From: an uncultured Acidobacteriota bacterium | GTDB lineage: Bacteria > Acidobacteriota > UBA6911 | Assembly (NCBI GenBank): GCA_963809485.1 | Contig: CAWEJX010000012.1 | Location: 192,001 to 256,000, forward strand | DNA length: 64,000 nt | Direction of reading: 5' to 3' | Shown: positions 1-31,351 of the stretch, piece after piece | Numbering within the stretch: the stretch's first letter is position 1 | Layout of the letters: each line of letters begins with the position of its first letter | Position numbers and translations under genes: made by a program | Notes under the pieces: model-generated | Database searches by the model: none | Seen by the model: the letters and a program-made list of their open reading frames with translations, nothing else | What the model was told of the DNA's origin: nothing

Positions 1-185
1 GGGCCGATTTCCAGAACATATTCAACCGGCTGGTCATTCCGGATCCAACGGCAACCAATGCCGCAGCGACCCAGAACGTTAATCCCGCCACGGGCCAGAC
101 CCAGTCCGGATTCGGATATATTGCAACAAACGGGACCGGAACAGCGCCTCGTAGCGGTATAATAGTTGCCCGAATTCAGTTCTAG
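1..185 (+). CDS. C-terminal end of a TonB-dependent receptor / outer-membrane beta-barrel protein (partial)
   Basis: Frame 3 reads ADFQNIFNRLVIPDP...SGFGYI...APRSGIIVARIQF*. The F-N..FG.I..PR...R.F pattern with terminal Phe is typical of acidobacterial TBDR C-termini. Confidence 0.75.
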   Translation, partial: ADFQNIFNRLVIPDPTATNAAATQNVNPATGQTQSGFGYIATNGTGTAPRSGIIVARIQF

Positions 186-305
186 GCCGCGCTGCAAAAA
201 TTATCTCTCGCTGTGGCGGCCGAGGAACGTTTCTCGAGGGAGAGCAAGTTCACTGAATGGATCGTCTTATTGGGACCGGCCAATAAAGTTACACGGCCAA
301 TACCC

Positions 306-396
306 AAGCCCCGGAGGGGCGTAACATGACAGCGCCCCGGGCGCAAGCCCGGGGTTAAGTGGATGGGAGAACGAAGCCCGGCAGGGGCGTCACATG
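306..396. repeat. REP-like palindromic cluster
   Basis: Two copies of aagccc(c)gg(c)aggggcgt(a/c)acatg flank the hairpin ccccgggcgcaagcccgggg; intergenic. Confidence 0.6.
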
Positions 397-548
397 GTTT
401 TTGGGTAGTGTCCCCTGTGATTTGCGGGACCCAATAATTAGCGCCTCAATCCTTCCGAAATGGTGTGCGTATTCACTCCGAATCAGAAAGAACAAAGGAC
501 ATGGACGATAACCGGGAAGGGATCTACGGGCCTGCCAAGGAGAAAAAA

Positions 549-2275
549 ATGAAGGGAATGGGTCGAAGTGCGAGAGGTGTTTTGTGGATAGCCGCCTTTA
601 TTTTCAGTTCCACGCTGCTGGCGCAAGAGGCAAAATTTGCGGTACTGAACCCGAGGGGCACACAACCGCCGATACGACTTGTCCCGATGGCGCCACGGTT
701 GGATACACTGGACGGCAAGACGATATACATCGTCAATGTGGGCTTTGGGGATACATTCCTGCCCGAAACACTGAAGGTGCTCGCGCAGCGATACCCCAAA
801 ACCAATTGGGTTCTCAAAAGGAAAATCGGAAGCTATTTTGACGATGATCCGAAACTATGGGCCGAAATCAAGGAAAAAGGGCATGGAATGATAATGGGAG
901 TCGGGCATTGAAGCACCTGTTCGCCGGCGGTCGTCGGCCATTGCCTGACAGTGGAAAGACTCGGTCTACCTACGGCTCCCGTGATCACGCAACGGTTCGA
1001 AGAACTGGTCAAGACCATTGCCTACAAAAAGGGGATGCCAAACCAACGATTTGTTTTTGTCCCCCATCCTGTCGCCGGCAGATCTCCCGAATTATGCCAT
1101 CGGTATATGGAAGGCAATGATCCGGTGACGAAAAAGCCTATCGTGGAGGAGTTTTTGGCGGCTCTGACAAAACCGCTGAATCCTGAGGAGAAAAAGACGG
1201 GATTTTTGCAGAGACCTCCTCGACCGAGGCTCATCGAACCGGATACAGCCGAAAACCTGCAGCGTCTCTTTGCAAAGAATGGGTGGACCGACGGTATTCC
1301 CATAGTCCTTCCGACCGAAGAAAGAGTGGCTTTGATGCTGAAGAACACGAGCCGCAAACCGGACGAGGTTGTCGGTACCATGCGCCCGTCGCCTCCCCAT
1401 GAGGCCTGGGAGTTCACCGTCGAAATGGTTGCCACGAATGCCGTAATGGCCGGTGCTAAACCGGAATATATTCCGGTGATTCTAGCCCTGGCTTCGACCG
1501 GAGTGACTTCACTTTTCAGTTCAACCACGTCTTTTGCGCGCATGGTTGTCGTCAATGGCCCTATCCGAGAACAGATCAGTATGAATTCGGGACTTGGCGC
1601 TATGGGGCCTTTCAATGAGGCCAATGCCACGATTGGACGAGCTTGGACCCTGATATCCAAAAATCTCGGTGGCGGAGGTACGCCGGGAGAAACCTACCTC
1701 GGCAGTCAAGGGAACAATCTTAATTACAACAATATTTGCTTTGCCGAAAGGGAGGACGCGCTTCCCGCCGGCTGGAATCCCGTTCACGTTCAAAAGGGCC
1801 ATAAGGCTGGAGAGAGCTACGTCAGCACCTTCACCGGCTGGAGCCTCATCAACTATGGCGGTTTTGCACTCCCGCACCATCAGTTTATCAAACGAATGCT
1901 GACCGGTTTGCTGGCCAGCGGGACCGGCTCCGGCAGCCAGGCCACTCTGTTGCTTGATCCGATTACGGCACGGGACCTCAGGAATGATGAGGGCTTCGAC
2001 ACAAAGGAAAAGCTAAGTGACTGGCTGATGAAGAATGGAACATCGCCCGCGCAGCAGTACTGGGCACGCCACTCCGATGAGCTGAAGAAAGGCAAAGAGG
2101 GGATCGAGCCCTTTGCGTCATGGCTGAAGTACCCAGAGGACGCCTTCATACCCGTTTCAAACTTCAGGCCGGAGACGCCGATCGAGATTATCGTTGTGGG
2201 GGGGAAACGAATGCTTTTCTGATGGCGGGGGATTTTCGTTATGTCTCGGGCGCCTCTGTGGATAAGTGGAGGTAA
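549..2275 (+). CDS. Exported UGSC-family-like selenoprotein, paralog 1 (Sec at UGA 909-911)
   Basis: ORFs 465-911 and 951-2222 are in the same frame, and read-through gives GVGH-U-STCSPAVVGHC. RBS aaggag before ATG 549, signal peptide, DGIPIVLPTEERV motif. A frameshift in the G-run at ~2200 restores the family end ...SVDKWR* at 2275. Confidence 0.88.
923..938 (+). promoter_or_regulatory. Bacterial SECIS-like hairpin (paralog 1)
   Basis: GCCGGC-GGTC-GTCGGC: 6-bp stem and GGUC loop, stem starting 11 nt after the UGA. Confidence 0.8.
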
Positions 2276-2400
2276 GGCTCGATTCGTTTGCGAACCAAAT
2301 TGTAATTGCGATCACGACTTCTCGGTGCAGATTTCATGGGGTCGCCTGCTTTTGACCGGGTAACGAGGTAGGAAACTGTTTATCAGCAAAGCAGCTGGAT

Positions 2401-2475
2401 ACGGAAGACACGGAGCAAGCGCGATCCACGGATAAAAACCCTGGCTTTTATCCGCGTTCTTCTGTGTCCTTCCGT
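2401..2475. repeat. Imperfect intergenic inverted repeat
   Basis: acggaagacacgga...ggataaaa-ccctggc-ttttatcc...tctgtgtccttccgt forms a long hairpin. Confidence 0.5.
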
Positions 2476-2505
2476 ATCCCTGCTTTTTCGCGATGGAGGC
2501 TTTCG

Positions 2506-3078
2506 TTGAATAATAAACAACTCTACTGCTTTTGGGCAGCTTCGATAATAGTTGCAGCCAGTCTAAGCCCGTTAGGCGCTCAAACCCCCGGTTCCTCACC
2601 GGCGGCCCCCGCGTCGACAGGCGTTACGATTACGGGAATCGTCGAATGCGGGCAGGGCTACACTTCCCACGAACTGTATGACATGAAAATTACCGTGACG
2701 GATGTGGTGCGCGGTGAAGCAGCATGGATGCGGATCAAGGAAGCGAGTCCATCAAACAAAGCTGCGGAGGCGGGATTCGAGTATGTCCTGGCCCGCGTGA
2801 AATTTGAATATTATGCGAGAGGAACACCCGGCCTGTGTATCCATCAACTCAATCCACAGCAATTCAGCGCTGTTTCTTTGGAAGGCCAGGATTATCAGAT
2901 TGCCCAGGTAGTGCTTCCGAAACCGGACTTGCGCAAAGCCATGAAGTCGGGTGAGACAGTCGAAGGTTGGATTGCGTTTTCTGTGTCTCAGCAGGACAAA
3001 GGTCCTCTCATGACATATTCTGCCGATCAGGGTGGGGCGATCGAGCACGGCGGAGCGAAGTGGTTTTTGCTTCGTTGA
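2506..3078 (+). CDS. Secreted DUF4352-like (Ig-like fold) protein, paralog A
   Basis: ggagg RBS before TTG 2506, signal peptide, motifs VECG..YDMKI..VVRG..A..RIK..GFEYVLARVKF and SGETVEGWIAF; paralogous to 5096, 12284 and 13205. Confidence 0.7.
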   Translation: MNNKQLYCFWAASIIVAASLSPLGAQTPGSSPAAPASTGVTITGIVECGQGYTSHELYDMKITVTDVVRGEAAWMRIKEASPSNKAAEAGFEYVLARVKFEYYARGTPGLCIHQLNPQQFSAVSLEGQDYQIAQVVLPKPDLRKAMKSGETVEGWIAFSVSQQDKGPLMTYSADQGGAIEHGGAKWFLLR

Positions 3079-3294
3079 GTTTGGGCCTGTGATAAGGCAT
3101 GCTGGGCAGGATGACAGCTTGGAAGTCTCAAGGCAGCCGAAGGCGTCGACCTGAGGTGAATGGAATGCGGCCATTTTGGGGAGAGCGGATTTGTCCTGCT
3201 CCTATCCATGCGAGAGCGAGACCAATGGCGTAGCTAACAAAATCCTGAAGCACTCAACAATTCGTTATATGCTGATTTAAGGAGGACTAGAGCA

Positions 3295-5023
3295 ATGAAA
3301 AGCCGAATTTGTTGTTTTTTGGCCGGAATGTTTTTAGCAGCCATTTTTCTGGTCGGGAATGCCATTGGCTGCGGAGAAGCCAAGGTCACGGTAGTAAATC
3401 CCTCGAGGCACACCTCCCCCGATACGCCTGGTGCCGATGGCGCCTCGTTTGGATACCCTGGACGGCAAAACGATCTATGTCATTAACATCGGGTTCGGGG
3501 ATACATTCCTGCCTGAAGTGCAGAAGGTGATGGCCGAGAAATATCCCAAGACGACCTGGATATTCAGGAGAAAGGCGGGAAGGGACTATTTCGACGACGA
3601 TCCGAAGCTTTGGGCCGAAATAAAGGAAAAAGGCCACGGAATGATTATGGGCGTGGGCCATTGAAGCACGTGCTCGCCGGCGGTCGTCGGCCACTGTGTA
3701 ACGGTAGAAAGATTGGGTGTGCCTACTGCGCCAGTTGTTACTCAGAGATTTCAAGAACTGGTGAAGAACTATTTCCTGGAAAAAGGGAATGCCGAAGCAG
3801 CGGTTTACCTTTATTCCGCATCCTGTCGCCGGCAGGCCCCCTGAGTTGTGTAATCAATATGTAAGGGGCAAGGATCCGTTGACTGGAAAACCGATCGTTG
3901 AGGAGTTTGTCGCTGCGCTGACAAACCCGCTGACTGCGGAGGAAAAGAAAACCGGATTCCTGATGAGGGATCCGCAACCACGGCTGTTAGAGCCAAACAC
4001 TCCAACGGCCCTGACAGATCTCTTTGAGAAAAACGGCTGGACCGACGGGCTTCCTATAATACTTCCCACCGAAGAGAGAGTCGCCAATATGCTTAAAGGC
4101 ACCAGCCATAGGCCGGATGAGATTGTGGGCACCATGCGTCCCTCTCCGCCCCATGAGGCCTGGGAATTCAACGTGGAGATGGTTGCCGCCAATGCCGTGA
4201 TGGCTGGAGCAAAACCGGAGTATCTTCCCGTTATCCTTGCATTGTCATCGACAGGCGTAACCTCGCTTTTCAGTTCTACAACATCTTTCGCGAGGATGGC
4301 GGTTGTCAATGGGCCTATCATTACGGAAATCGATATGAATGGCGGGATAGGAGCCATGAGTCCCCTGAACAAGGCCAATGCCACGATCGGAAGAGCGTGG
4401 ACATTGTTATCGAGAAATCTTGGGGGAGGAGCCATTCCCGGGCAGACTTACCTGGGGAGCCAGGGAAACAATCTCAACTACAACAATGTTTGTTTCCCTG
4501 AAAAAGAAGACAAATTGCCTGCGGGATGGAAACCCTTATCCGAGCAGAAAGGGTTCAAGCACGGGGAAAGTGCTGTCAGCACGTTTACCGGATGGGAAAT
4601 CGTTCATGGGGCCCTCGGGATGGGGGGTAACAAAGAAGGGCTTGCCCGGGCAGTAGCCCGATATTCCACGGGTGCGTATCGGCAGGTTACCTTGTTGCTG
4701 GATCCAATCGTGGCCAGTGATTATAAAGAGCTTCGACGGATTCCAAACCAAGGAAGCGCTCAGCGAATGGCTCCTGAAAAACACTCCTTCACCCGCTCAG
4801 GGGTACTTGCAGAGATCACCCCGATGAGGTGAAACAGGCCAAATCGGGTGTTGAGCCCTTTGCGACATGGTTGAAATATCCGGAAGGAGCACTCATCCCG
4901 GTATCAAGCCTTCGGCCTGAGGTTCCTGTCGAGATAATCGTGGTGGGAGGTGAGACAAATGCCTTCATGCAGATGGGGGATTTCAGGCACGTATCGACCG
5001 CCTCAGTGGACAAGTGGAGATAG
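3295..5023 (+). CDS. Exported UGSC-family-like selenoprotein, paralog 2 (Sec at UGA 3662-3664; several frameshifts)
   Basis: Fragments 3295-3486, 3431-3664, 3789-4832 and 4829-5023 join into a collinear homolog of paralog 1. Reads GVGH-U-STCSPAVVGHC and ends SVDKWR. Frameshifts near 3410, 3770 and 4735-4830. Confidence 0.8.
3676..3691 (+). promoter_or_regulatory. Bacterial SECIS-like hairpin (paralog 2)
   Basis: GCCGGC-GGTC-GTCGGC at the same spacing after the UGA. Confidence 0.8.
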
Positions 5024-5095
5024 AGGCAAATAGTCATGACCGGGAAAGAGGCAGACAATGCCTCTTTCCCATTTCATACAAAAGGAGAGGTTAAT

Positions 5096-5666
5096 ATGAA
5101 ACACAGGATTTCTGCTCTATTAGCTTGTTTGATTTTGGCGGCCTTTGCTCGGGTTGGATACCGCAGCAGCACAAGGTCTGTCTCCCTCCAATGCGGCGCC
5201 GATCGGCACGTCGATAAAAACTCAGGTGGAATGCGGGGAGCGAGCAGGTTCCATGGAGCCCTACGATGCAAAGATTGCTGTTCTCCAGGTTTTGCGCGGC
5301 AAGGAGGCATTGGATCGCATAAAGGCGGCAAACCCCTCCAGTCAGCCTCCGAAGGCCGGCTTTGATTATGTTGCTGCGCGCGTGGCGTTTCAGATGAATG
5401 CGATTCTGGCGCCGGGAAACAAGACTTTTGAATTGGCAAGAAAGATGCAGTTTGTTGCGCTCACGGCAGATGGGAACGAGCAGGAGCCTCCTTCGGTGAG
5501 TCCACCTTCGCCGGAGCTTCATCGGACAGTGCGCTCAGGTGAGTCTGCGGAAGGCTGGATTGTTCTGTTGGTGGAACAGTCGAATAAGAAACCCGTGATG
5601 TTCTTTGATCCTGCGGCTGGCGGTGCCATGGGAGGCGGTAAAGTCCTGTTCTTCCAGCTTTACTGA
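5096..5666 (+). CDS. Secreted DUF4352-like protein, paralog B (frameshift near 5150)
   Basis: RBS aaggag, signal peptide MKHRISALLACLIL... then shifts into ORF 5145-5666 with VECG, VLRG, RSGESAEGWIV and a C-terminal FQLY. Confidence 0.7.
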
Positions 5667-5870
5667 GTACCGGGGTTCGGTCTGCAAATCCATCGAGGCT
5701 CTTAGGAGAGATCCGGTCCAATCCGACAGGATGTCCTCCAACGCAATGCTCCTCTGTTTCTGGATATTTTCCAGCGAAATGACATTCGTTTCCGGCATGA
5801 CCGTCCATACCTACACTCGCTGTCCGATCATGGCGGCGGTTTTATGTCTCAGAGATGTTGCATTTCCTGA

Positions 5871-6152
5871 GTCAGGCACCTCCGGTAAAGCCGGAGGCTT
5901 GAAAGATTGGAACCGCTCAAAGCGGTTGGAGGAGTTCCGCCGGTCTTGAACGCTGACTTACGCGGGCAAAAGCCGATGAGGCGCTCCGCGCTGGCCCCTG
6001 CGGGGATCGGAAGCGCCTCATCGGCTTTTGCTCGCCGACCCTCGCCGAACAAATCGGCGTGTGTCAGCGCTTTTATCAGCGTTTCTCAGCGTTTCAAAAT
6101 ACCGAGCTGTCAAACTCTTTGAGTCTCCCGGCAGAGCCGGGGGGTTACCAAT
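5871..6152. mobile_element. Non-autonomous IS200/IS605-like element, copy A
   Basis: Begins gtcaggcacctccggtaaagccggaggc and ends gagtctcccggcagagccgggggg ttaccaatg (subterminal hairpins); near-identical to 17020, 25840 and 33650; no transposase ORF. Confidence 0.75.
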
Positions 6153-6288
6153 GTAATTATTTCGGAAAAATGCCGCTGCCTGAATTTTTTTGGCAGAAAA
6201 GCAAAGAAGTCCTGGATATAGGATTTATCCACGAAATAGGATATCAGTTGTCCGCTCATGGCAGAACAGGCTGGTCAGGGAGGATGCG

Positions 6289-7908
6289 ATGAAAGCAAGA
6301 AAAGGTATTTTATTGTTTCTTTCGGGTGTGAGCACATTGGTATTCATCCTGCTTGCCTCTAAAGCAGCACAGGCAGAAAACATCCGGGCGCTCGATCCTC
6401 GCGGCATCCCGCCGACTGTGGAGAGGATTCCGCTGAGTCCGCGTCTGGCCGGCATCAAGGGCGCCAGGATCTACATTGTGATGTCCTGGCCGACCAATTC
6501 CGCTTTCGATAGTGTCGTCAAAGATCTGGTGCTGCTCCTGAAGGAGCGTGGCGCCAAAGAAGTAACCATCAAGCAGCGCAATGCCCGCTATTCCGAGGAC
6601 GATCCGAAACTATGGGATGAGATGAAGCAGATGTGCGATGCATTTATGTATGTCGCGGCACCGTCCTCTTCGACTACGTCCTATGCTTTTCAATGGAGCG
6701 CCAAACTTGAAAAGATGGGCCTGCCTGGCACCGTTGTGAATTTCGACGATCTGAACAGCGTCGGCGACACTACAAGCAGCCGATGGGGAGCGATGCTGCG
6801 CCGTTCGTCCTTCGTTTATCCACCCGAAACCATGAATAAGCAGGCTTATCCTGAGGCATTATCCCGTGCGATCGATAATCTGACCAGGCCCTTGACTCCG
6901 GAGGAAAAGGCCACCGGCGTAATGCAACCCAAGCCGCGGCCGGAAATTTACGTCTCCGGTGATTTTGATCAAATTCAAAAATCGTATTACGACGCCGGGA
7001 TGACGGATGGGTTGCCGATCATTCCGCCAACAGCCGAACGCGTGGCTGCGATGCTGAAAGGCACAGGCCATAAGCCCGACGAAGTTGTTGCCCAGGCATT
7101 GATGCCTGAAGGGCTGGGCGTTACCGTTAAACACGTGGCGATCAATGGCGTAATGGCCGGATGCCTGCCGGAGCAAATGCCGGTTTTGCTTGCGACTATT
7201 GAAGCGTATCAAAAGAACAATTTGAATTCGGTTTTGCGGTCAACAAACCCTTTTTCCTTCATGCAGGTCGTGAACGGACCGATCGCCCAGCAGCTGAAGA
7301 TGAATAGCGGCACTGGCGCGCTCAGCCCCGGCAATCAGGCAAACGCCTCAATGGGGCGCGCTCTGCGGCTGTTCATCCTCAATCTCGGGGGCGGCGTGCC
7401 CGGAGTCAACCTGATGGCCGTAATAGGCAATGTCTCGAGTTATTCCTTTATGTTTGCGGAGAACGAAAAGGAAAGCCCATGGGAACCGCTCAGCGTCAGT
7501 CTCGGGTACCAGAAGAACGATAGCACTCTCACATTTTTTTTGGGAGGCTGGGCGCACTCCGGTAATTACGGACCTGGCTTTGCCGGTGAGGTTGCGCTTG
7601 ATAGCGTTGCGCAGGACATGTCACCGTATCAAATGACCTCCGGCGCGACTGTGATTATTTCTCCCAAGTTCGCGCAAGATCTCCAGAGACGTGGAATGAC
7701 CAAAGCTGACGTTGAAAGCTATTTACAGAAGCATTCCACACGCGCGCCGCGCAAAGGCCGGCCAGCCGAAGCCGCTCAAAGCGGGCCGGTGCCGGTGTTT
7801 CCGGAAGGCACCGTCAAGATCATTGTGGCCGGCGGAGATGCCAGTTCTATGATGCAGGCGTGGAGCATGTATCGCCCGATAATCGTATCGATCGACAAAT
7901 GGCGGTAG
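6289..7908 (+). CDS. Exported UGSC-family-like paralog 3, lacking the redox motif (SxxT instead of UxxC)
   Basis: Single uninterrupted ORF with signal peptide, LDPRG..P, YSEDDPKLW, DGLPIIPPTAERV and a SIDKWR end. AAP-SSST aligns without gaps to VGH-USTC. Confidence 0.85.
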   Translation: MKARKGILLFLSGVSTLVFILLASKAAQAENIRALDPRGIPPTVERIPLSPRLAGIKGARIYIVMSWPTNSAFDSVVKDLVLLLKERGAKEVTIKQRNARYSEDDPKLWDEMKQMCDAFMYVAAPSSSTTSYAFQWSAKLEKMGLPGTVVNFDDLNSVGDTTSSRWGAMLRRSSFVYPPETMNKQAYPEALSRAIDNLTRPLTPEEKATGVMQPKPRPEIYVSGDFDQIQKSYYDAGMTDGLPIIPPTAERVAAMLKGTGHKPDEVVAQALMPEGLGVTVKHVAINGVMAGCLPEQMPVLLATIEAYQKNNLNSVLRSTNPFSFMQVVNGPIAQQLKMNSGTGALSPGNQANASMGRALRLFILNLGGGVPGVNLMAVIGNVSSYSFMFAENEKESPWEPLSVSLGYQKNDSTLTFFLGGWAHSGNYGPGFAGEVALDSVAQDMSPYQMTSGATVIISPKFAQDLQRRGMTKADVESYLQKHSTRAPRKGRPAEAAQSGPVPVFPEGTVKIIVAGGDASSMMQAWSMYRPIIVSIDKWR

Positions 7909-8141
7909 CGGCAAGAATATCTTGAATGTTGTCAGCCCGGAAGCAGAGAAGGCTTGCAAAATCAGGGCAGACGGCACAATGTATGCCCTCCAAGGGTAGG
8001 CCGCACAAAGCGCGGCCAACCCTTTGCTGTGGCGCCCCGTTGGGGCCCTGCCCCCACCCTGGGGGACTTATCCGCCCTTAACCGCTCGAAGCCAACCTCG
8101 CCGCAAAGGCGCAAGCAGGCTTACGCACTCCAAAGACAGCT

Positions 8142-9872
8142 TCACCGCCATTTATCGATAGAGGCGCTGGCAACATGGCTGAAATCCATGGCCATCCAGT
8201 AGGGATTGGTTCCCCCTCCGACCACAATCACATTGATGGGCGGATTCCCTCCCTTCCGCCTGACAAAGGGAGATACGGGCAAAGCAGCGCTCTGCGGTAG
8301 CTTCAGCCACGATGCAAACGGTTCAACACCGGCTTGAGCCTTTTTAAGATCGTCAGGACGGCTGGCCCAATAGTGCCACGCGGGCCAGGTTGCGTTTTTC
8401 TCGAGCCACTCGGCCAGCTTCTCTTTGGTATCGAAGCCTTCGACTTCCTTCATATCTCTCGCGGTCACTGGGTCGATCAGCACGGTCGCCGTACTTCCCC
8501 ACCCGCCTCCGCTCATGAAGAAACTCATCAGCGCATTCTTCATGATCTCATGATGCTGTACCGGAAGGTATGCGCCGTAATCGAGAACGCTCCAGCCGCT
8601 GAATGCGCTGACGACGCTCTCTTGCGGCTTGAAGCCTTTCTGAACATGCAAGGGCTGCCAGCCTGCGGGCAGATCCTCTTCCGTTTCCGGGAAACAGATA
8701 TTATTGTAATTCATGCTGTTGCCCTGGCTTCCGAGATACGTCTCGCCAGGAATGCCGCCTCCTCCGAGATTCTTTGAAATCAGCGTCCACGCTCTGCCTA
8801 TGGTTGAGTTTGCTTCATTAAACGGGCCCATGGCCCCGATCCCCGAGTTCATCTTTATCTGCTGCGCGACAGGCCCGTTTACAACGACCATCCTCGCGAA
8901 AGAGGTGGTCGAGGTGAACAGGGAGGTGACTCCCGTCGAGGAAAGAGCCAGGATAACGGGAAAGTACTCGGGTTTTGCACCTGCCATGACCGCATTTGCG
9001 GCGACCATCTCAACTGTGAATTCCCACGCTTCGTGTGGAGGGGACGGCCTCATCGTGCCGACTGTTTCATCGGGCTTATGACTCGTTCCCTTCATCATCT
9101 CAGCGACCCTTTCCTCGGTGGGCAGCTCTATGGGCAGTCCGTCTGTCCACCCGTTGTCGTTGAAAAGCTTCTTCAGGTTGTCCGGAGTGTCGGGCGAAAG
9201 CAATCGCGAACGAGCACCGCGCGACACAAACCCGGTTTTCTTGTCGTCGCCGGACAAAGGCTGGGTAAGGCCTGCAATGAACTCCTGAATCAGCGGCTTG
9301 CCCGTTACCGGATCGTTACCTTCGAGATATTTACGGCAGACCTCGGCAGGTCTTGCGGAGATGGGGTGTGGGACGAAAGCGAATCGCATCCCGGGCATCC
9401 CTTTTTTGAATGCGATGGTTCTTACCAGATCGGTGAATCGCTGAGTGATGATAGGCACGGTGGGGATTCCGAGCCTCTCTACCGACAGGCAATGGCCGGC
9501 GACCGCCGGCGAGCATGTGCTTCAATGACCTATGGCCATGATCATGCCGTGCCCCTTTTCTTTTATCTCTTGCCAGAGTTTGGGGTCGTCGTCGAAATAA
9601 CTGCCGATCTTTTTCTTATAAACCCAGTTTGTTTTCGGGTAATGCGCAGCCATGACCTTCTGGATTTCCTGGACAAAGGGTTCCGTCAAAGGATAATTCG
9701 TGTCAACGATGTAGATTGTTTTTCCATCCAGGCTGTCCAGGCGCGGGGCCATGGGGATCAGGCGAATCGGAGGCTGTATGCCTCGCGGATTCAGCACTGA
9801 AATTTTTTGAGCATCTGCTGCAAATGAAGCGCAGGCGATGAGAATCGCCAGAAAAGGCATGTGCATTTTCAT
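8142..9872 (-). CDS. Exported UGSC-family-like selenoprotein, paralog 4 (Sec at UGA 9524-9522)
   Basis: ORFs 9522-9929 and 8142-9458 are in frame and read AIGH-U-STCSPAVAGHC. Signal peptide MKMHMPFLAILIACASFAADA; ends SIDKWR; about 576 aa with no frameshift. Confidence 0.92.
9495..9510 (-). promoter_or_regulatory. Bacterial SECIS-like hairpin (paralog 4)
   Basis: Minus strand reads GCCGGC-GGTC-GCCGGC, a fully Watson-Crick stem at the same spacing. Confidence 0.82.
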
Positions 9873-10097
9873 AGGAACCTCCGAACCCCATTTTCGCACA
9901 AAACAGTAAAGCAGCCATGCAGATTTCACAGATTTTACGAAAGACCCCGGAAAACAAGGCCCGCTTGCTTCATAGGGGCAATCTGTGAATTCTGCGGTTG
10001 TCTTTAGCTTTTGGAAAAATCAGGGGATTTGGGCCGGCCCGGCACTAGTATGTGGGTAGGCTGCAAATTTCTATATCGATAGTGCATTTTCATAGTA

Positions 10098-10265
10098 AAA
10101 TGGGGCTCGCGCAAAATGCAGCGACACCCGCAGGGCATTATTGTGTCCTTTGCGAAAATCACCTGAAACAGACCCAGTCGGGAATTGAACCTTTCGTGTC
10201 CTACTTGAAAGCCGGGAACATGGCATCACAGCCGGTATCGTGTTTCATTCGCAGACCTCCATCAG
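10098..10265 (+). pseudogene. Decayed C-terminal relic of another UGSC-like paralog
   Basis: LAQNAATPAGHY...LKQTQSGIEPFVSYLK...QPVSCFIRR aligns to paralog 4 LEKNATWPAWHY...LKKAQAGVEPFASWLK...LPVSPFVRR. Confidence 0.7.
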
Positions 10266-10420
10266 GCGCCCCCGCGTCAGCGCGGCATATGGCCGCCGGT
10301 ATGGAATGGCGGAGCAGGATTCGGGCTTGTGTAATAGGAAATCTGATTTACGGATCAGTGTCTGATCTGCACGAATGGTCGAAAGGGACGTAAACAATTC
10401 ATCATGAAAGGAGAACCGGC

Positions 10421-12229
10421 ATGGACCCTGCCGAGAATGAAAAGAAGAGCACGAGTAGAAGAGCATTTTTCAAGGGCATAGCCGCCGGCGCCGCAGGTGC
10501 AAGTTTGTTGAGTCCGTTTGCCCGGGAAGCCGCGCCCAGTTCCAGTCCGCAGAAAGCAAAGGAGGAGTTGATTACGGTTTTTAACCCTCTCGGACAACCT
10601 CCTCCCCTGGCTTTACTGCCTTTGGCGCCTCGCCTCGATACCCTAAAAGGCAAAACAATCTATGTCGTGGATACTAAATTCCCGGCCAGCAAGACCTTTT
10701 ATGAAGAATTCGTCAGAATTCTCAAGGAGAAATATCCCGATACGACCTGGATTCCGAGAGATAAGATAGGAAGTTATTTTGACGATGATCCAAAACTGTG
10801 GGCCGAAATCAAGGAAAAGGGCCACGGAATGATCATAATGGTAGGTCACTGAAGCACCTGTGCGCCGGCGGTCGCCGGTCATGCGCTAACCGTGGAAAAG
10901 CTGAAAGTGCCCGCAGTGCCCATAATCACCCAGACTTTTAACCGATCTGTCAAGAATGCTGTTTACGTCAAGGGAATGCCCCTCATCCGATTTGCCTTTG
11001 TCCGCCACCCCGTCGCATATACGCCGCTCGCTGACTGCAGGGCGGCCATATTGGGCAAGGATCCTGTGACCGGCAAACAGGTTCTTGATGAAGTTGTTGC
11101 GGGGCTGACCAGTCCTTTGACTGCGGAGGAAAAGAAGACGGGTTTCATAGAAAGGCCGCGGGACAGGTTTGTAAAGCCCGACACGGCCGACAACCTGCAG
11201 AACCTGTTTCGCGACAGCGGATGGACGGACTACCTGCCGATCATTCTTCCGACGGAACAGAAAGTGGCCGAGATGCTCAAAGGCACCAGCCACATGCCCG
11301 ATGAACCGGTAGGCGAGATGCGCCCATCTTCTCCTCACGAAGCGTGGTCCTTCGACGTACGGAAAGTTGCAATCAATGCGGTGATGGCGGGCGCAAAACC
11401 GGAATTTCTCCCGGTAATTCTGGCGATTGCATCCTCGGGGGTCACCTCGCTCTTCACTTCTACAAATTCCTTCACCTCCATGGTGGCCGTAAATGGACCC
11501 ATACGCAAAGAGATAAACATGAACATGGAGATAGGCGCGTTGGGTCCCTTTAATCACGCTAATGCAACCATTGGAAGAGCCTGGACACTGATGTCGAAGA
11601 ATCTGGGCAATGGAGGTGTTCCCGGGCAGAACTACATGGGCAGTCAAGGGCAAGGCCATAGCTACACCAATCTCTGCCTTGGAGAAAAAGAAGAGCGTTT
11701 GCCGCCAGGGTGGAAACCCTTTCATGTACAGAAGGGATTCAAGCCGGAAGAGAGTGTTGTAAGCATGTTCGACGGCTGGAACTGGTCCAACGTTGGGGGA
11801 TTTGAGAGTACTAAGGATCGATCCATCAAACGGTTTTTCGAAAATAATACGCAATGTTGCGGCGCCACCCTGGTTTTAGACCCACTCGTGGCCGACATGC
11901 TCTACAAGGAACTCGGGTACAAAACCAAGGAGCAGTTTCAGGACTGGCTGAACAAGAGCGTTGGAACGGTCAAAGATGATTATTGGGGGGCGATCTCCGG
12001 CCAGGGCGGAGCTGAAGGACCCGGCGGCCGTCGAGCGAAAGAGTATGAACAGGCCAAAGCAGGGGTTGAGCCCTTCGCAACATGGCTGAAATATCCTGAA
12101 GGAGCCGTACTCCCGGTGTCCAGAAATGTGCAGGTCAATATACTCGTGACTGGAGGAGAGACGAATCCCTATTGGCAGGGTGGGAGTCTCAGATACATCG
12201 CAAGTGCATCCGTCGACAAATGGAGGTAG
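10421..12229 (+). CDS. Tat-exported UGSC-family-like selenoprotein, paralog 5 (Sec at UGA 10850-10852)
   Basis: ORFs 10421-10852 and 10892-12229 are in frame and read MVGH-U-STCAPAVAGHA. Twin-arginine SRRAFFK; ends SVDKWR; about 602 aa. Confidence 0.92.
10864..10879 (+). promoter_or_regulatory. Bacterial SECIS-like hairpin (paralog 5)
   Basis: GCCGGC-GGTC-GCCGGT (closing G-U pair) at the same spacing. Confidence 0.8.
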
Positions 12230-12283
12230 GCGGGATGTGCAGGGGGGGCACGGCTCCCCCTGGTTTCCTGAGGGGGAGATCCC

Positions 12284-12853
12284 ATGAGAACAAAGATGAT
12301 TTTGGGTATGCTGGCAGCGCTGGCTGCCTCGATGCCCGCTATGCGGGCACAGTCACGAGAACCCGGTTTCTCTCCATTGAATCCCGCGCAGGTTGGAACC
12401 CGCCTGGGAACTGTTATCGAATGCGGCTTCGGCTATAGTCCCCATGAAAAATATGACGTCAAATTGACTCTTCTGGAAGTTCTGCGCGGAGATAAGGCAT
12501 CGGAGCGGATTAAAGCAGCAAGCGCATCCAATCAACCTCCGAAGGCTGGGCTCGAGTATATTCTTGCCCGCGTCAAGTTTGAGTTTTTTGCCAAAGGGGC
12601 GCCGGGGAATTGTGTTCATGAACTGAGACGGGAAGAATTTGCGGCCTTCTCCGCCGATGGGCAAGAATACGAGGCCGCCATGATTGCACCTCCCCAGCCG
12701 GGGCTCAGCGCGAAGCTCAATTCAGGCGATTCCTTCGAGGGCTGGCTTGCCTTCCAGGCGCCGCAAGGCGGGAACAAGGCATTGCTGAGGTTTGTCGCCA
12801 GCGTCGGAAGCGCCGTCGAACAGGGAGGGCAAGTGTGGTTTCAGCTTTATTGA
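12284..12853 (+). CDS. Secreted DUF4352-like protein, paralog C
   Basis: Signal peptide; IECGFGYSPHEKYDVK..VLRG..GLEYILARVKF..GNCVHE..SGDSFEGWLAF..WFQLY. Confidence 0.75.
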   Translation: MRTKMILGMLAALAASMPAMRAQSREPGFSPLNPAQVGTRLGTVIECGFGYSPHEKYDVKLTLLEVLRGDKASERIKAASASNQPPKAGLEYILARVKFEFFAKGAPGNCVHELRREEFAAFSADGQEYEAAMIAPPQPGLSAKLNSGDSFEGWLAFQAPQGGNKALLRFVASVGSAVEQGGQVWFQLY

Positions 12854-12861
12854 ATGGGCCC

Positions 12862-13171
12862 TAGCTAGTTTCTGTCGCGAAACTCGGTTCTTGCGAGGAA
12901 ACCGGATTTTTCAACAGTCGATAGGATATTTGATATTATGTAGAAGCCGGGAATTGGAGCCAGGCCGCGTAGCGGTCAGCTGAGTTTAGCCAGGCCTTTT
13001 AAGGCTTGGATCTAAAGGAGTTAGGTTTTCCGTCGCCTAGCAACGGTTGAATCTCAGGCGGCGCTACGCGACGCGCTATTCTCAATACCATGATTCCCGG
13101 CCTTGAAAGGCCGGGCTAAAATCATAGTGCCGCTATGCGGCGCAAACCAGTTTCGCGACAGAAACTAGCTA
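12862..13171. mobile_element. MITE-like element with 23-bp perfect terminal inverted repeats and internal REP-like hairpins
   Basis: tagctagtttctgtcgcgaaact (12862-12884) is the exact reverse complement of 13149-13171; internal cccggccttgaaaggccggg and cgtcgc..cgctacgcgacg palindromes. Confidence 0.7.
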
Positions 13172-13204
13172 TGGAAACCCAATCCAAAGCAAGGAGAAAC
13201 AACC

Positions 13205-13765
13205 GTGAAGCTCAGAAGAACACTCGCATGGCTTGTTCTGGCATACCTGGTTACAGCTCCTGCCTTACTGCAGTCGCAAATACCAGGCTACTCCCCGCTC
13301 AGCCCGGCAGCCGTCGGCGCCCGGGTGGAGACCGTGATCCAATGCGGCGGAGAGCCTTGTGATGTGAGAATCTTCCTTCTCGAGGTTGTGCGCGGCGAGA
13401 AGGCCTGGCAACGTATCCAAGCGACAAATTCGTCCAATACTCCGCCGGAAGGCGACCTAGAATATGTCCTTGCGCGTATGAGGTTCGAGATGTCTTCGAG
13501 GACTCCGGGAAGCAAGAGCTACCCGATAAGATCGGGACAGACAGGGCAGTTTTTCGCTTTCTCGGCAGAGGGCCAACCCTATGAGACGCCTGCTCTGGTG
13601 TTGCCCAAACCGGAACTGGAGGGCTTGCTCCGTTCCGGCGAATCGATTGAGGGCTGGATTGCTTTCCGTGTACTCAAGAGCGAAGCCAAGCCGCTGATGA
13701 GCTTTGATCCGGCATCCGGGGCGGCTAAAAGCCAAGGCAAGCTCATATGGTTCCGGCTCCAATAA
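13205..13765 (+). CDS. Secreted DUF4352-like protein, paralog D
   Basis: aaggag RBS, GTG start, signal peptide, IQCGGEPCDV..VVRG..LEYVLARMRF..RSGESIEGWIAF..WFRLQ. Confidence 0.75.
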   Translation: MKLRRTLAWLVLAYLVTAPALLQSQIPGYSPLSPAAVGARVETVIQCGGEPCDVRIFLLEVVRGEKAWQRIQATNSSNTPPEGDLEYVLARMRFEMSSRTPGSKSYPIRSGQTGQFFAFSAEGQPYETPALVLPKPELEGLLRSGESIEGWIAFRVLKSEAKPLMSFDPASGAAKSQGKLIWFRLQ

Positions 13766-14150
13766 ATAGCGGTTCCGGCAAGTCAACGAAAGATGAAATG
13801 ATTCGGCGGCCGGTGAGGACTTTCAATTCGCATCAAGAGGAAAAACACTGAAAAGGCGAAGTGGAAGAAAAGCCTGCACGGCGAGAAAGGCAATCGAATG
13901 GGATGTCCGCTCGTTGCGGGGCGCGGATGCACATCCTCTGCGCGATAAATCCTCCCTGGCGCCATTCGGAAAATTTTGAATTGCCTGGGATTGCCTTCCA
14001 AACCGCCGCCTGTTTTCCGGGTTCTGACATCACCTTAATGCCGGCTGTGTCGCCCGGCTGAAGCGAAGCAGATGAAAAGAGACCTATGGATGAGTGCATG
14101 GAATTTATCGGATTCACCAACAGATTTCGCAATGGAAAGGAGAAATAACG

Positions 14151-29674: not shown

Positions 29675-31351
29675 ATGCCCGACAAGAAGAGTTTATCGCG
29701 CCGCAAATTCATCCAATCCGCTGCAGCCGATGCGGCGGCAGTGGCTGGTGCGGGTGCCCTGGCCGCTCTGGGGACCTCGGCTGCAACAGCAAAAACGGAT
29801 TGCTCCTCCAATATTCCAGCCAAGTGGGACCATGCGGCGGACCTGGTGATCGTGGGGACCGGGATGGCCGGACTCTCGACAGCTGTCACAGCCGCAGATG
29901 CCGGTGCCAAGGTGCTGATCCTGGAAAAGCTGTCCCAGCAGTACGAAGGCGGAAACAGCAAGGTGTGCATGCAGTTCATTTGGGCGCCCAAGGACATAGC
30001 GAAAGGAATTGCCTATATCAGAGCCATGGACTGCGGAATGACGGGAGACGAGGAAATTTATAGGGTCATGTCCGAAGGATTGGCAGAAAACCTTAAGGTC
30101 CTTAAAGACCTGGGCGCAACTCTGGCACCCTTGCCGCTCGCCATGGCGAATGTCGCATTTCCGGAACTGCCGGGCAGCGACTGCTATCAGGCTTATGCCT
30201 GGTCGGTGAATGGAGCCGGCCAGGGGAAAACGGGCGATGGGCTACTGTGGCAATTCATGCGCGACCAGGTGCAAAAGCGCAGCATCCAGGTTTTGTACGA
30301 GACTCCCGCAAAAGAACTGATTCAGGACGCCGGAAACAACGAGATCCTCGGTGTGATAGCTGAAAGAAAAGGCGTTAAAGTCGCCATCAAGGCAAAAAAA
30401 GCGGTTGTGCTTGCCTGCGGCGGTCTTGAATTCGACTATGCCATGCAGAAGCAGTACTTTTGGGGTTCGCCGGTCATGGGCGTCGGAACGCCGGGGAATA
30501 CCGGAGATGGAATCCGAATGGCCCAGAAGGCGGGCGCGGATCTTTGGCACATGAACGAGATCAACGGCGGTCACCCGGGCTGCTTCGCAGTCCCGGGGAC
30601 AGACCCGAATGTTGTAGGACTGGCGCCCGCCGGCCCCAGAGGCAATAGTTCCATCCTGGTCAACAAACTAGGCAGGCGTTATATGAACGACAGAGGCGGC
30701 ACCCGTTCCCACAGCCTGGGAACCCGAAATCTGGACTTCAACGCCGCGGCCATGGATTGGTCCAGCATCCCCTGCTGGGCAATCTTCGATGAGGCGTCAC
30801 GAAAAGCGGGTTGCATGCTTTCGTCGCGCGCCATCGGCGGGGGAGGAAAATGGACCTGGTTCGTGTGGCACTCCGGAATAACCTGGAGCGCCGACAACAG
30901 CGAGGAGGTTGCCAAGGGCTGGATACTAAAAGCCGCCTCCCTTGCTGAACTGGCGGAAAAAATCAGAACGGACCCGGACAATCGCAAATTGATGGATGTC
31001 AAAAACCTGGAATCGACTGTAGCCCAATACAACCAATACTGCGCAGACAAAAAGGACCCAGAATTCGGCAGGTTTCCGGGCTCGCTGGCGCCGCTCAGCG
31101 GACCTCCCTTCTATGCAATGAAGCAGTGGCCCAACACCGCAAACACGATGGGCGGCCCCAGACGTAATAAACTGTGTCAGATTGTGGATCCGGACAAGAA
31201 GCCGATTGCAAGGTTGTATGGAACCGGCGAACTCGGCTCCTTCTGGGGATGGGGATACAACTCGGGCGGTAACATTGGCGAATGCCTGTTCTCCGGCCGC
31301 ATTGCCGCAAAACATGCGGTAGCGCTCAAACCGTGGGATGCCGGCGCATGA
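29675..31351 (+). CDS. Tat-exported FAD-dependent oxidoreductase (FAD_binding_2)
   Basis: LSRRKFIQ, DLVIVGTGMAG, GGNSKV, NTMGGP and LYGTGELG; paralog of 14151 and 54004. Confidence 0.88.
   Translation: MPDKKSLSRRKFIQSAAADAAAVAGAGALAALGTSAATAKTDCSSNIPAKWDHAADLVIVGTGMAGLSTAVTAADAGAKVLILEKLSQQYEGGNSKVCMQFIWAPKDIAKGIAYIRAMDCGMTGDEEIYRVMSEGLAENLKVLKDLGATLAPLPLAMANVAFPELPGSDCYQAYAWSVNGAGQGKTGDGLLWQFMRDQVQKRSIQVLYETPAKELIQDAGNNEILGVIAERKGVKVAIKAKKAVVLACGGLEFDYAMQKQYFWGSPVMGVGTPGNTGDGIRMAQKAGADLWHMNEINGGHPGCFAVPGTDPNVVGLAPAGPRGNSSILVNKLGRRYMNDRGGTRSHSLGTRNLDFNAAAMDWSSIPCWAIFDEASRKAGCMLSSRAIGGGGKWTWFVWHSGITWSADNSEEVAKGWILKAASLAELAEKIRTDPDNRKLMDVKNLESTVAQYNQYCADKKDPEFGRFPGSLAPLSGPPFYAMKQWPNTANTMGGPRRNKLCQIVDPDKKPIARLYGTGELGSFWGWGYNSGGNIGECLFSGRIAAKHAVALKPWDAGA

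Follow-up and report, generated by a model that had tools for sequence, protein, structure and literature searches.

The closest described counterpart of the elements reported here is the selenocysteine insertion sequence (SECIS) of Escherichia coli fdhF. As read from NC_000913.3, it consists of the TGA, a spacer of 11 nucleotides (nt) and the hairpin GGUUGCA-GGUC-UGCACC with one bulged U; the available part of PMC8659212 agrees on the offset of 11 nt and points to G23 and U24 in the loop. For bacterial SECIS (bSECIS) elements in general, the model in the available part of a 2026 review (PMC13188914) has a loop of 3–9 nt with at least one G in loop positions 1–2, an upper stem of 4–16 bp, 16–37 nt from the UGA to the loop and a folding energy of −7.5 kcal/mol or lower. 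Here we describe four hairpins, each following an in-frame TGA, in a stretch of 64,000 nt (positions 192001–256000 of contig C12) from the draft genome (6.04 Mb, 21 contigs, contamination estimate 7.3%) of an uncultured Acidobacteriota bacterium. This whole stretch is referred to as the window. At its start, a segment of 12.3 kb holds five paralogous genes, and four of them have the in-frame TGA.

The genes belong with the UGSC family, which became known from marine metagenomes (Global Ocean Sampling, GOS) and is, in what is available of PMC2398784, a major and almost always selenocysteine (Sec)-containing family there, with 255 Sec against 21 Cys forms. A 'UGSC/Unknown_1' fusion, which may be the one in the window, is mentioned there for Figure S1A. 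We regard the four hairpins as very probably the SelB-binding upper stem-loops of ordinary in-coding bacterial SECIS elements, on the strength of their sequence and genomic setting. Both this kind of SECIS and the UGSC selenoprotein family are known already; what stands out is the unusual number of copies of the family in this bacterium.

Hairpins downstream of four in-frame TGA codons

The hairpin GCCGGC-GGUC-GYCGGY was found at four sites of the window, each time behind an in-frame TGA and a spacer of 11 nt. In paralogue 1 (549..2222, forward strand), the TGA at 909–911 is followed by GCCGGC-GGUC-GUCGGC at 923–938, with 6 bp including one G-U pair and −9.0 kcal/mol. The same hairpin sequence is present at 3676–3691 in paralogue 2 (3295..5023, forward strand), behind the TGA at 3662–3664. 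Paralogue 4 (8142..9872, reverse strand) has the TGA at 9524–9522 and GCCGGC-GGUC-GCCGGC at 9510–9495, with six Watson-Crick pairs and −11.7 kcal/mol, and paralogue 5 (10421..12229, forward strand) has the TGA at 10850–10852 and GCCGGC-GGUC-GCCGGU at 10864–10879, with a G-U outer pair and −10.3 kcal/mol. These energies are those of the minimal 16-nt hairpins. Paralogue 3 (6289..7908, forward strand), which has Ser at the Sec position and served as an internal control, has neither the hairpin nor the TGA.

A preliminary description of this DNA had placed a hairpin 11 nt behind all four UGA codons and had denied one to the Ser paralogue, and both statements are borne out, for the former in sequence as well as in coordinates. 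Folding the four 50-nt segments had been proposed there as a check, and RNAfold predicted the 6-bp stem with the 4-nt loop in each of the four copies. The codons CCG GCG GTC, which had been called invariant, are identical in all four. Synonymous variation just upstream was found as described, the Thr codon being ACC, ACG, ACA and ACC and the Cys codon TGT, TGC, TGC and TGT across the four copies. The substitutions within the hairpin do keep the pairing: a Val-to-Ala change (GTC to GCC) makes the G-U pair into G-C, and GGC to GGT makes a G-C pair into G-U. The word 'covarying' does not hold among the four copies themselves, which differ by one-sided G-U/G-C wobble changes only, and is partly justified once homologues are added, where compensatory double changes occur (see below).

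When up to 2 mismatches were allowed, the pattern GCCGGCGGTCGYCGGY was found 6 times in the window, where 0.36 occurrences would be expected; none of 100 shuffles reached 6. The four sites account for five of these matches, as the palindrome at 9495 is hit on either strand, and the remaining one is an unrelated 2-mismatch match at 30619. A relaxed motif occurs 11 times in the whole genome, with a TGA at the same offset in 9 of them.

With a 4-nt GGUC loop carrying G at positions 1 and 2, a 6-bp stem and a UGA-to-loop distance of 17 nt (the 11-nt spacer plus the 6-nt 5′ arm), all four hairpins lie within the bSECIS limits, and no difference from the model was seen in any of its sequence criteria. 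This model is permissive; our own strict version of it accepts half of the Sec paralogues (21 of 42) and none of the 10 non-Sec ones, but also 110 background codon positions out of 2700 in these genes (4.1%). A G-U is found in the loop of all 21 paralogues that pass. The likeness to the fdhF SECIS is one of several details: both are located in coding sequence, both have the upper stem 11 nt after the UGA, and both have a GGUC tetraloop with a G-U about 20 nt after the UGA. The preliminary description had taken the 11-nt offset and the GGUC apical loop of fdhF as established, which is right, because the sequence in NC_000913.3 agrees with PMC8659212.

Selenocysteine machinery and proposed mechanism

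By its gene content, the organism is predicted to be able to insert Sec. SelB was found with 391 bits (cut-off 242), SelA with 565 bits and SelD with 345 bits, the latter two over their curated cut-offs, and the genome has one tRNA-Sec. Because it contains one in-frame TGA, the SelD gene (G000:C8:80982-81905) probably encodes a selenoprotein version of SelD. In paralogues 1 and 4 the final stop codon is TGA as well, and therefore site-specific recoding, rather than an altered genetic code, is indicated.

The TGA is shared far beyond the window. In 99 homologous matches (79 loci, other genomes), the Sec position is TGA in 91, Cys in 2, Leu in 2, Met in 2, Ala in 1 and Ser in 1. Their hosts are mainly Acidobacteriota, and also Desulfobacterales, other delta-proteobacterial lineages and Dehalococcoidia. 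The SECIS interpretation offered in the preliminary description is thus supported from several sides, namely the fit to the bSECIS model, the likeness to fdhF, the Sec machinery, the membership in a known selenoprotein family and this recurrence of the TGA.

The mechanism we propose is the ordinary one. As the ribosome nears the UGA, SelB with GTP and Sec-tRNA(Sec) would bind the hairpin 11 nt downstream through its GGUC loop and bring the tRNA to the A site, and the UGA would be read as Sec, not as a stop. The product would be a full-length exported protein of 560–600 amino acids (aa), with a U-x-x-C redox motif at a helix N-terminus within a UGSC-family domain. SelB binding, Sec insertion and the redox function of the protein are what we infer from this arrangement.

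Conserved peptide or selection on the RNA

Several results weigh against the SECIS reading. The fdhF SECIS has a bulged U (U17) in its 5′ arm, whereas the stems in the window are fully paired without a bulge; therefore their loop G-U, at nt 22–23 counted from the U of the UGA, lies one nucleotide nearer to the UGA than in fdhF. The 5′ arm is 6 nt long against 7 nt in fdhF, and the stem sequences are unrelated. An Rfam scan of window positions 1–14000, with E up to 10, returned no family at the four hairpins. The shuffle z-scores of 60-nt windows were unremarkable (+0.47, −0.02, −1.43 and +0.68). We dropped shuffle z-scores, of 60-nt and of 37-nt windows, as a SECIS test, because the proven fdhF SECIS scores no better (z = 0.10) and the test is therefore uninformative.

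The more serious objection is that the hairpin might be a by-product of the conserved peptide P-A-V-V/A-G written in GC-rich codons, with no function as RNA, and that Sec insertion, if any, depends on another feature. The hairpin spans the codons for Ser/Ala-Pro-Ala-Val-Val/Ala-Gly, and four of its six pairs join first and second codon positions, so that the peptide alone fixes 4 of the 6 pairs. When synonymous recodings were drawn at random with the codon usage of this genome, the inner five pairs appeared in 41% of them and all six in 13%. Compared with synonymous recodings, the 45 nt behind the TGA fold in this subfamily with an energy only 0.2–1.6 standard deviations better (minimum free energy z of −0.2 to −1.6). 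In view of these rates and this small gain in energy, the stem alone proves little.

It is rather the loop, the outer pair and the invariance of synonymous sites that point to selection on the RNA. The GGTC loop is expected in 10% of recodings, and six pairs and loop jointly in 1.3%, yet both are present in all four copies. Across the 52 window-type Sec homologues, Val in the loop is written GTC in 48 of 49 cases (background 0.33), the strongest synonymous constraint of the 247 columns evaluated, and the Pro codon is CCG in 51 of 52 (background 0.42). These sit beside codons that vary freely: for the Gly two codons before the TGA, and for the Thr and Cys after it, all codons are in use.

Covariation was examined in an alignment of 34 sequences, made of the 4 window copies, 23 sequences of the same type from other genomes (P-A-V, with one P-A-A), 2 further sequences and 5 of a second subfamily; 19 Ser-for-Ala orthologues and one row identical to window copy 1 were left out of it. 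In this alignment, 94.6% of cells are paired, and both partners have changed in three of the six pairs (14 cells). Neither the pairing nor the covariation score observed was reached in any of 500 shuffles, and the slid controls were all lower. At one pair, 28 of the sequences have G-C and 6 have A-U, and none is unpaired. Locus L091 makes this switch by changing CCG to CCA and GCC to GCT, both synonymously and with the pair kept, and in L031 and L063 the outer pair has changed to A-U and C-G. The second subfamily, with the different peptide A-G-U-P-G-C-I-S/P-A-V-A-G, has UUCAGC-GGUC-GCUGGA in the same register. At least part of this covariation is one event common to a clade.

When all close orthologues were taken in and the second subfamily out (47 sequences), pairing was 89.5% and covariation weak, with one pair changing on both sides and three invariant. 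In this set, one pair is replaced by a U-U or U-C mismatch in 19 of 46 sequences; such tolerance of a mismatch in the stem, seen in the Ser-for-Ala orthologues beside the closing pair, fits the by-product explanation, and the mismatch is not equivalent to the bulged U of fdhF. The evidence from covariation is therefore real but modest. A lower helix extending back to the UGA, formed by the S-T-C codons with the H-C codons, was also tried and rejected, being paired in 72% and its sole pair that is free to covary being unpaired in 42 of 46 sequences.

Homologues lacking Sec offer a further comparison. Two of them, L090 and L096, have Met at the Sec position and keep the peptide PAVVG, and in both the hairpin is broken, with third-position differences disrupting the middle pair and a GUA loop. 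On the other hand, L088, a Cys form with the same peptide, retains 5 of the 6 pairs with the loop GGUU, as the by-product explanation would have it; perhaps it is a recent conversion. It was the only locus found when metagenome contigs were searched for Cys-codon forms with the same peptide, and a search for Met-type homologues in 151 genomes of the order of genome G001 matched six genomes and gained few controls. The preliminary description had asked whether the hairpin is kept equally in Cys-codon homologues. The answer is mostly favourable to a SECIS, on data that are thin because only one same-peptide Cys locus was found, and this one keeps most of its pairs. The cleanest result of this kind comes from the sister P-A-T-V-G type, not the window's own: at exactly those synonymous sites that never vary in its 41 Sec forms, the two Cys-codon relatives (L084) carry other bases (A to C/G, U to C, C to U). 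Taking both sides together, we consider the by-product explanation improbable.

Genuine stops or another RNA role

Less probable again is that the TGAs are genuine stops in split or decaying genes, with a hairpin that has no bearing on them or serves as a terminator or pause site. Public gene calls do start behind the TGA, giving 'hypothetical proteins' of 430–440 aa, and paralogue 2 is frameshifted in the assembly. Compared with L009, which is 95% identical, it has indels at 3364, 3379, 3399, 3767 and 4734, and also at about 4809, leaving only 59 aa open after the TGA. The same differences were seen against contigs of other public runs, and these indels look like assembly error or strain-specific decay; they leave the TGA and the hairpins untouched. 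Against genuine stops, the TGA lies at one aligned codon in several phyla, and the protein is conserved on both sides of it in one frame. The non-Sec paralogue and the database homologues with Ser, Leu, Met or Cys cross this position as single uninterrupted open reading frames (ORFs). The Sec machinery is complete, the selenoprotein family is a recognised one, and no run of T follows the hairpin.

It is just as hard to credit that the hairpin has some other RNA role (a pause for export or folding, a ribonuclease site or the binding of a regulatory protein) beside a coincidental UGA, given its fixed offset from the UGA, its loop G-U at the position used by E. coli SelB and its absence from the 10 non-Sec paralogues.

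Other hairpin types in the same family

Hairpins of the window type are accompanied by others at the same codon position. In a sister group with the peptide P-A-T-V-G (loci L044–L087), CCAGCGACCGUCGGUCACUG hardly varies. All 38 of the 38 sequences use two rare codons, CCA and GGT (background 0.07 and 0.08, respectively), and of 148 windows of 5 codons, the one that begins at CCAGCGACCGUCGGUCACUG is the most constrained. We read this hairpin as a putative 7-bp stem with one C-A mismatch, a GUC loop and a shift of one codon, in which 98% of positions are paired. This 7-bp model was preferred because it explains all invariant synonymous sites; the minimum-energy structure from RNAfold was set aside, as it pairs a freely varying base. 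The 7-bp hairpin is a model, not an independent structure, because it was derived from a consensus with almost no variation.

Another case is a short UGSC gene of the canonical form that is also present in this genome (C12:92896-93303). In common with the window genes, it has an in-frame TGA, a hairpin, here 12 nt downstream, and a G-U in a small loop; unlike theirs, its stem is a different, 8-bp helix and its loop is GUA. Given such differing stems in one genome, one SelB appears to read several unrelated stems. The paralogues and orthologues illustrate how peptide and SECIS may co-evolve, with the GGUC-loop hairpin, a version with a mismatch and a version shifted by one codon.

Encoded proteins

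Paralogue 1 is a predicted secreted UGSC-domain fusion selenoprotein gene, with a signal peptide, the motif U121-S-T-C and a C-terminal domain of about 430 aa. Paralogue 2 belongs to the same family and is disrupted as described above by single-base indels in the assembly, keeping its TGA and hairpin. Paralogues 4 and 5 are intact putative UGSC-fusion selenoprotein genes, with U117-S-T-C and U144-S-T-C, respectively. Paralogue 3 would encode a non-selenoprotein without the UxxC motif, and matches PF24696 with 32.4 bits. Reading through the TGA gives proteins of 558, 577 and 602 residues. As for export, two signal peptides and one twin-arginine-like leader were read from the sequence, the latter being RRAFFKG in paralogue 5, with a weak TIGR02811 match (E 0.002).

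For the N-terminal domain, the match to Pfam PF24696 (UGSC family) scored 85.1, 94.7 and 67.3 bits (cut-off 25). With NCBIfam NF041046 (UGSC family (seleno)protein), the scores were 66.5, 70.7 and 46.8 bits, under the equivalog cut-off of 125. The Sec motif is G-H-U-S-T-C, in which the UxxC spacing is kept and U-G-S-C is not found; U-G-S-C or U-G-T-C is present in other paralogues of the same genome. Thus the window genes share with the UGSC family the PF24696 domain, Sec in a UxxC motif and the dominance of Sec forms (91 against 2 Cys forms in the homologous matches), and differ from it by the U-S-T-C motif, the NF041046 scores below cut-off and a length of 560–600 aa with about 430 aa of added C-terminal domain. 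Judged by these features, they represent a divergent, fused branch of the family.

In the predicted structure (mean predicted local distance difference test, pLDDT, 78.3), the Sec is flanked by a strand and by the N-terminal end of a helix. Redox motifs of the UxxC and CxxC kind are usually placed in this way. For the C-terminal domain of about 430 aa, neither Pfam nor NCBIfam returned a family, and no similar sequence was found among solved structures at E up to 1. Foldseek with the full protein model returned nothing at E ≤ 0.001. With VIA-align, only residues 53–214 matched, to generic flavodoxin-like or receiver-like folds (Z of 8–10.7), an arrangement that the tool itself classes as common. 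An Atlas feature search gave no named cluster outside PF24696.

Assembly and public-run contigs

The 3′ end of paralogue 1 is affected by the assembly as well. Contigs in all 3 of the public runs that cover it have one extra G in the G-run behind 2197. As assembled, the gene ends in KRMLF, and the homologous ending MAGDFRYVSGASVDKWR is found in the next frame, up to 2275 (ORF 2120–2275). With a G missing near 2197, the true end is therefore probably the conserved ...SVDKWR at 2275, not 2222; the ending KRMLF is probably frameshifted.

Matches were found in four public runs, with contigs at 90–99% likeness, and we draw no habitat claim from them. Contigs from RNA libraries bridge the UGA and the hairpin of paralogue 1 (732–1183) and cover those of paralogue 2, which does not amount to transcription of this strain. 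The depth of public-run contigs peaks over the island of UGA plus hairpin, at 871–1027 and 3540–3696, and loose contig ends cluster at 903/906 and 941/943. From the peak and these clustered ends, it follows that other paralogues or relatives reach 90% likeness only over about 40 nt.

Neighbouring features

Behind paralogues 1, 2 and 5 are small genes of about 170–190 aa, apparently secreted, at 2506–3078, 5145–5666, 12284–12853 and 13205–13765, with paralogue 5 followed by two of them. Two of the four match DUF4352 weakly, with 22.4 and 24.4 bits, below the gathering score of 25.9. They may be operon partners.

Two sub-threshold matches to the Rfam Acido-Lenti-1 RNA were also detected, at 307–354 on the reverse strand and 13096–13142 on the forward strand, with 34.4 and 28.5 bits (gathering score 37), which is consistent with an Acidobacteriota origin. 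A 31-nt inverted repeat, with arms at 12859–12889 and 13144–13174 that are 254 nt apart and 90% complementary, is located in an intergenic gap and encloses the second of these matches.

Family expansion in the genus

The paralogues of the window are a small part of what the genome contains. With tblastn, 52 long paralogue matches were found in the genome, of which 42 show TGA at the aligned codon, and 36 of these appear intact; with Pfam, 41 of 58 UGSC matches contain a TGA. As the genome is a draft with the contamination estimate given above, the paralogue count is provisional. Among the sampled genomes, PF24696 matches number 11–45 per genome in all 18 of the same genus, and 0 or 1 in 12 from other families of the class.

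We lean, with slightly better than even confidence, towards a genus-wide expansion to dozens of secreted UGSC-fusion copies, with a library of hairpins read by a single SelB. The largest bacterial selenoproteomes, in the available part of the 2026 review, have 57 and 63 genes (PMC13188914). The string 'Acidobacteri' has 0 occurrences in that review, and the available part of a 2025 paper has one Acidobacteriota genome with 3 selenoprotein genes (PMC12013277). No description of this UGSC expansion was found in the open-access literature text. If the expansion is real, this one family would approach the largest bacterial selenoproteomes on record, and at least three stem or register solutions would exist at the same codon position, all served by a single SelB.

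The hairpin itself is ordinary, and the interest lies in the size of the family and in the variety of hairpins apparently read by one SelB. Recognising the SECIS gives back a signal peptide and a redox-motif domain to dozens of genes per genome. The setting is a soil and wetland genus of Acidobacteriota whose genomes have 11–55 UGSC-domain matches each, and these observations point to a heavy use of selenium in the exported proteins of a lineage not known for it. If true, the genus would be an unrecognised selenium-rich lineage and would offer a ready-made system for defining SelB recognition outside E. coli.

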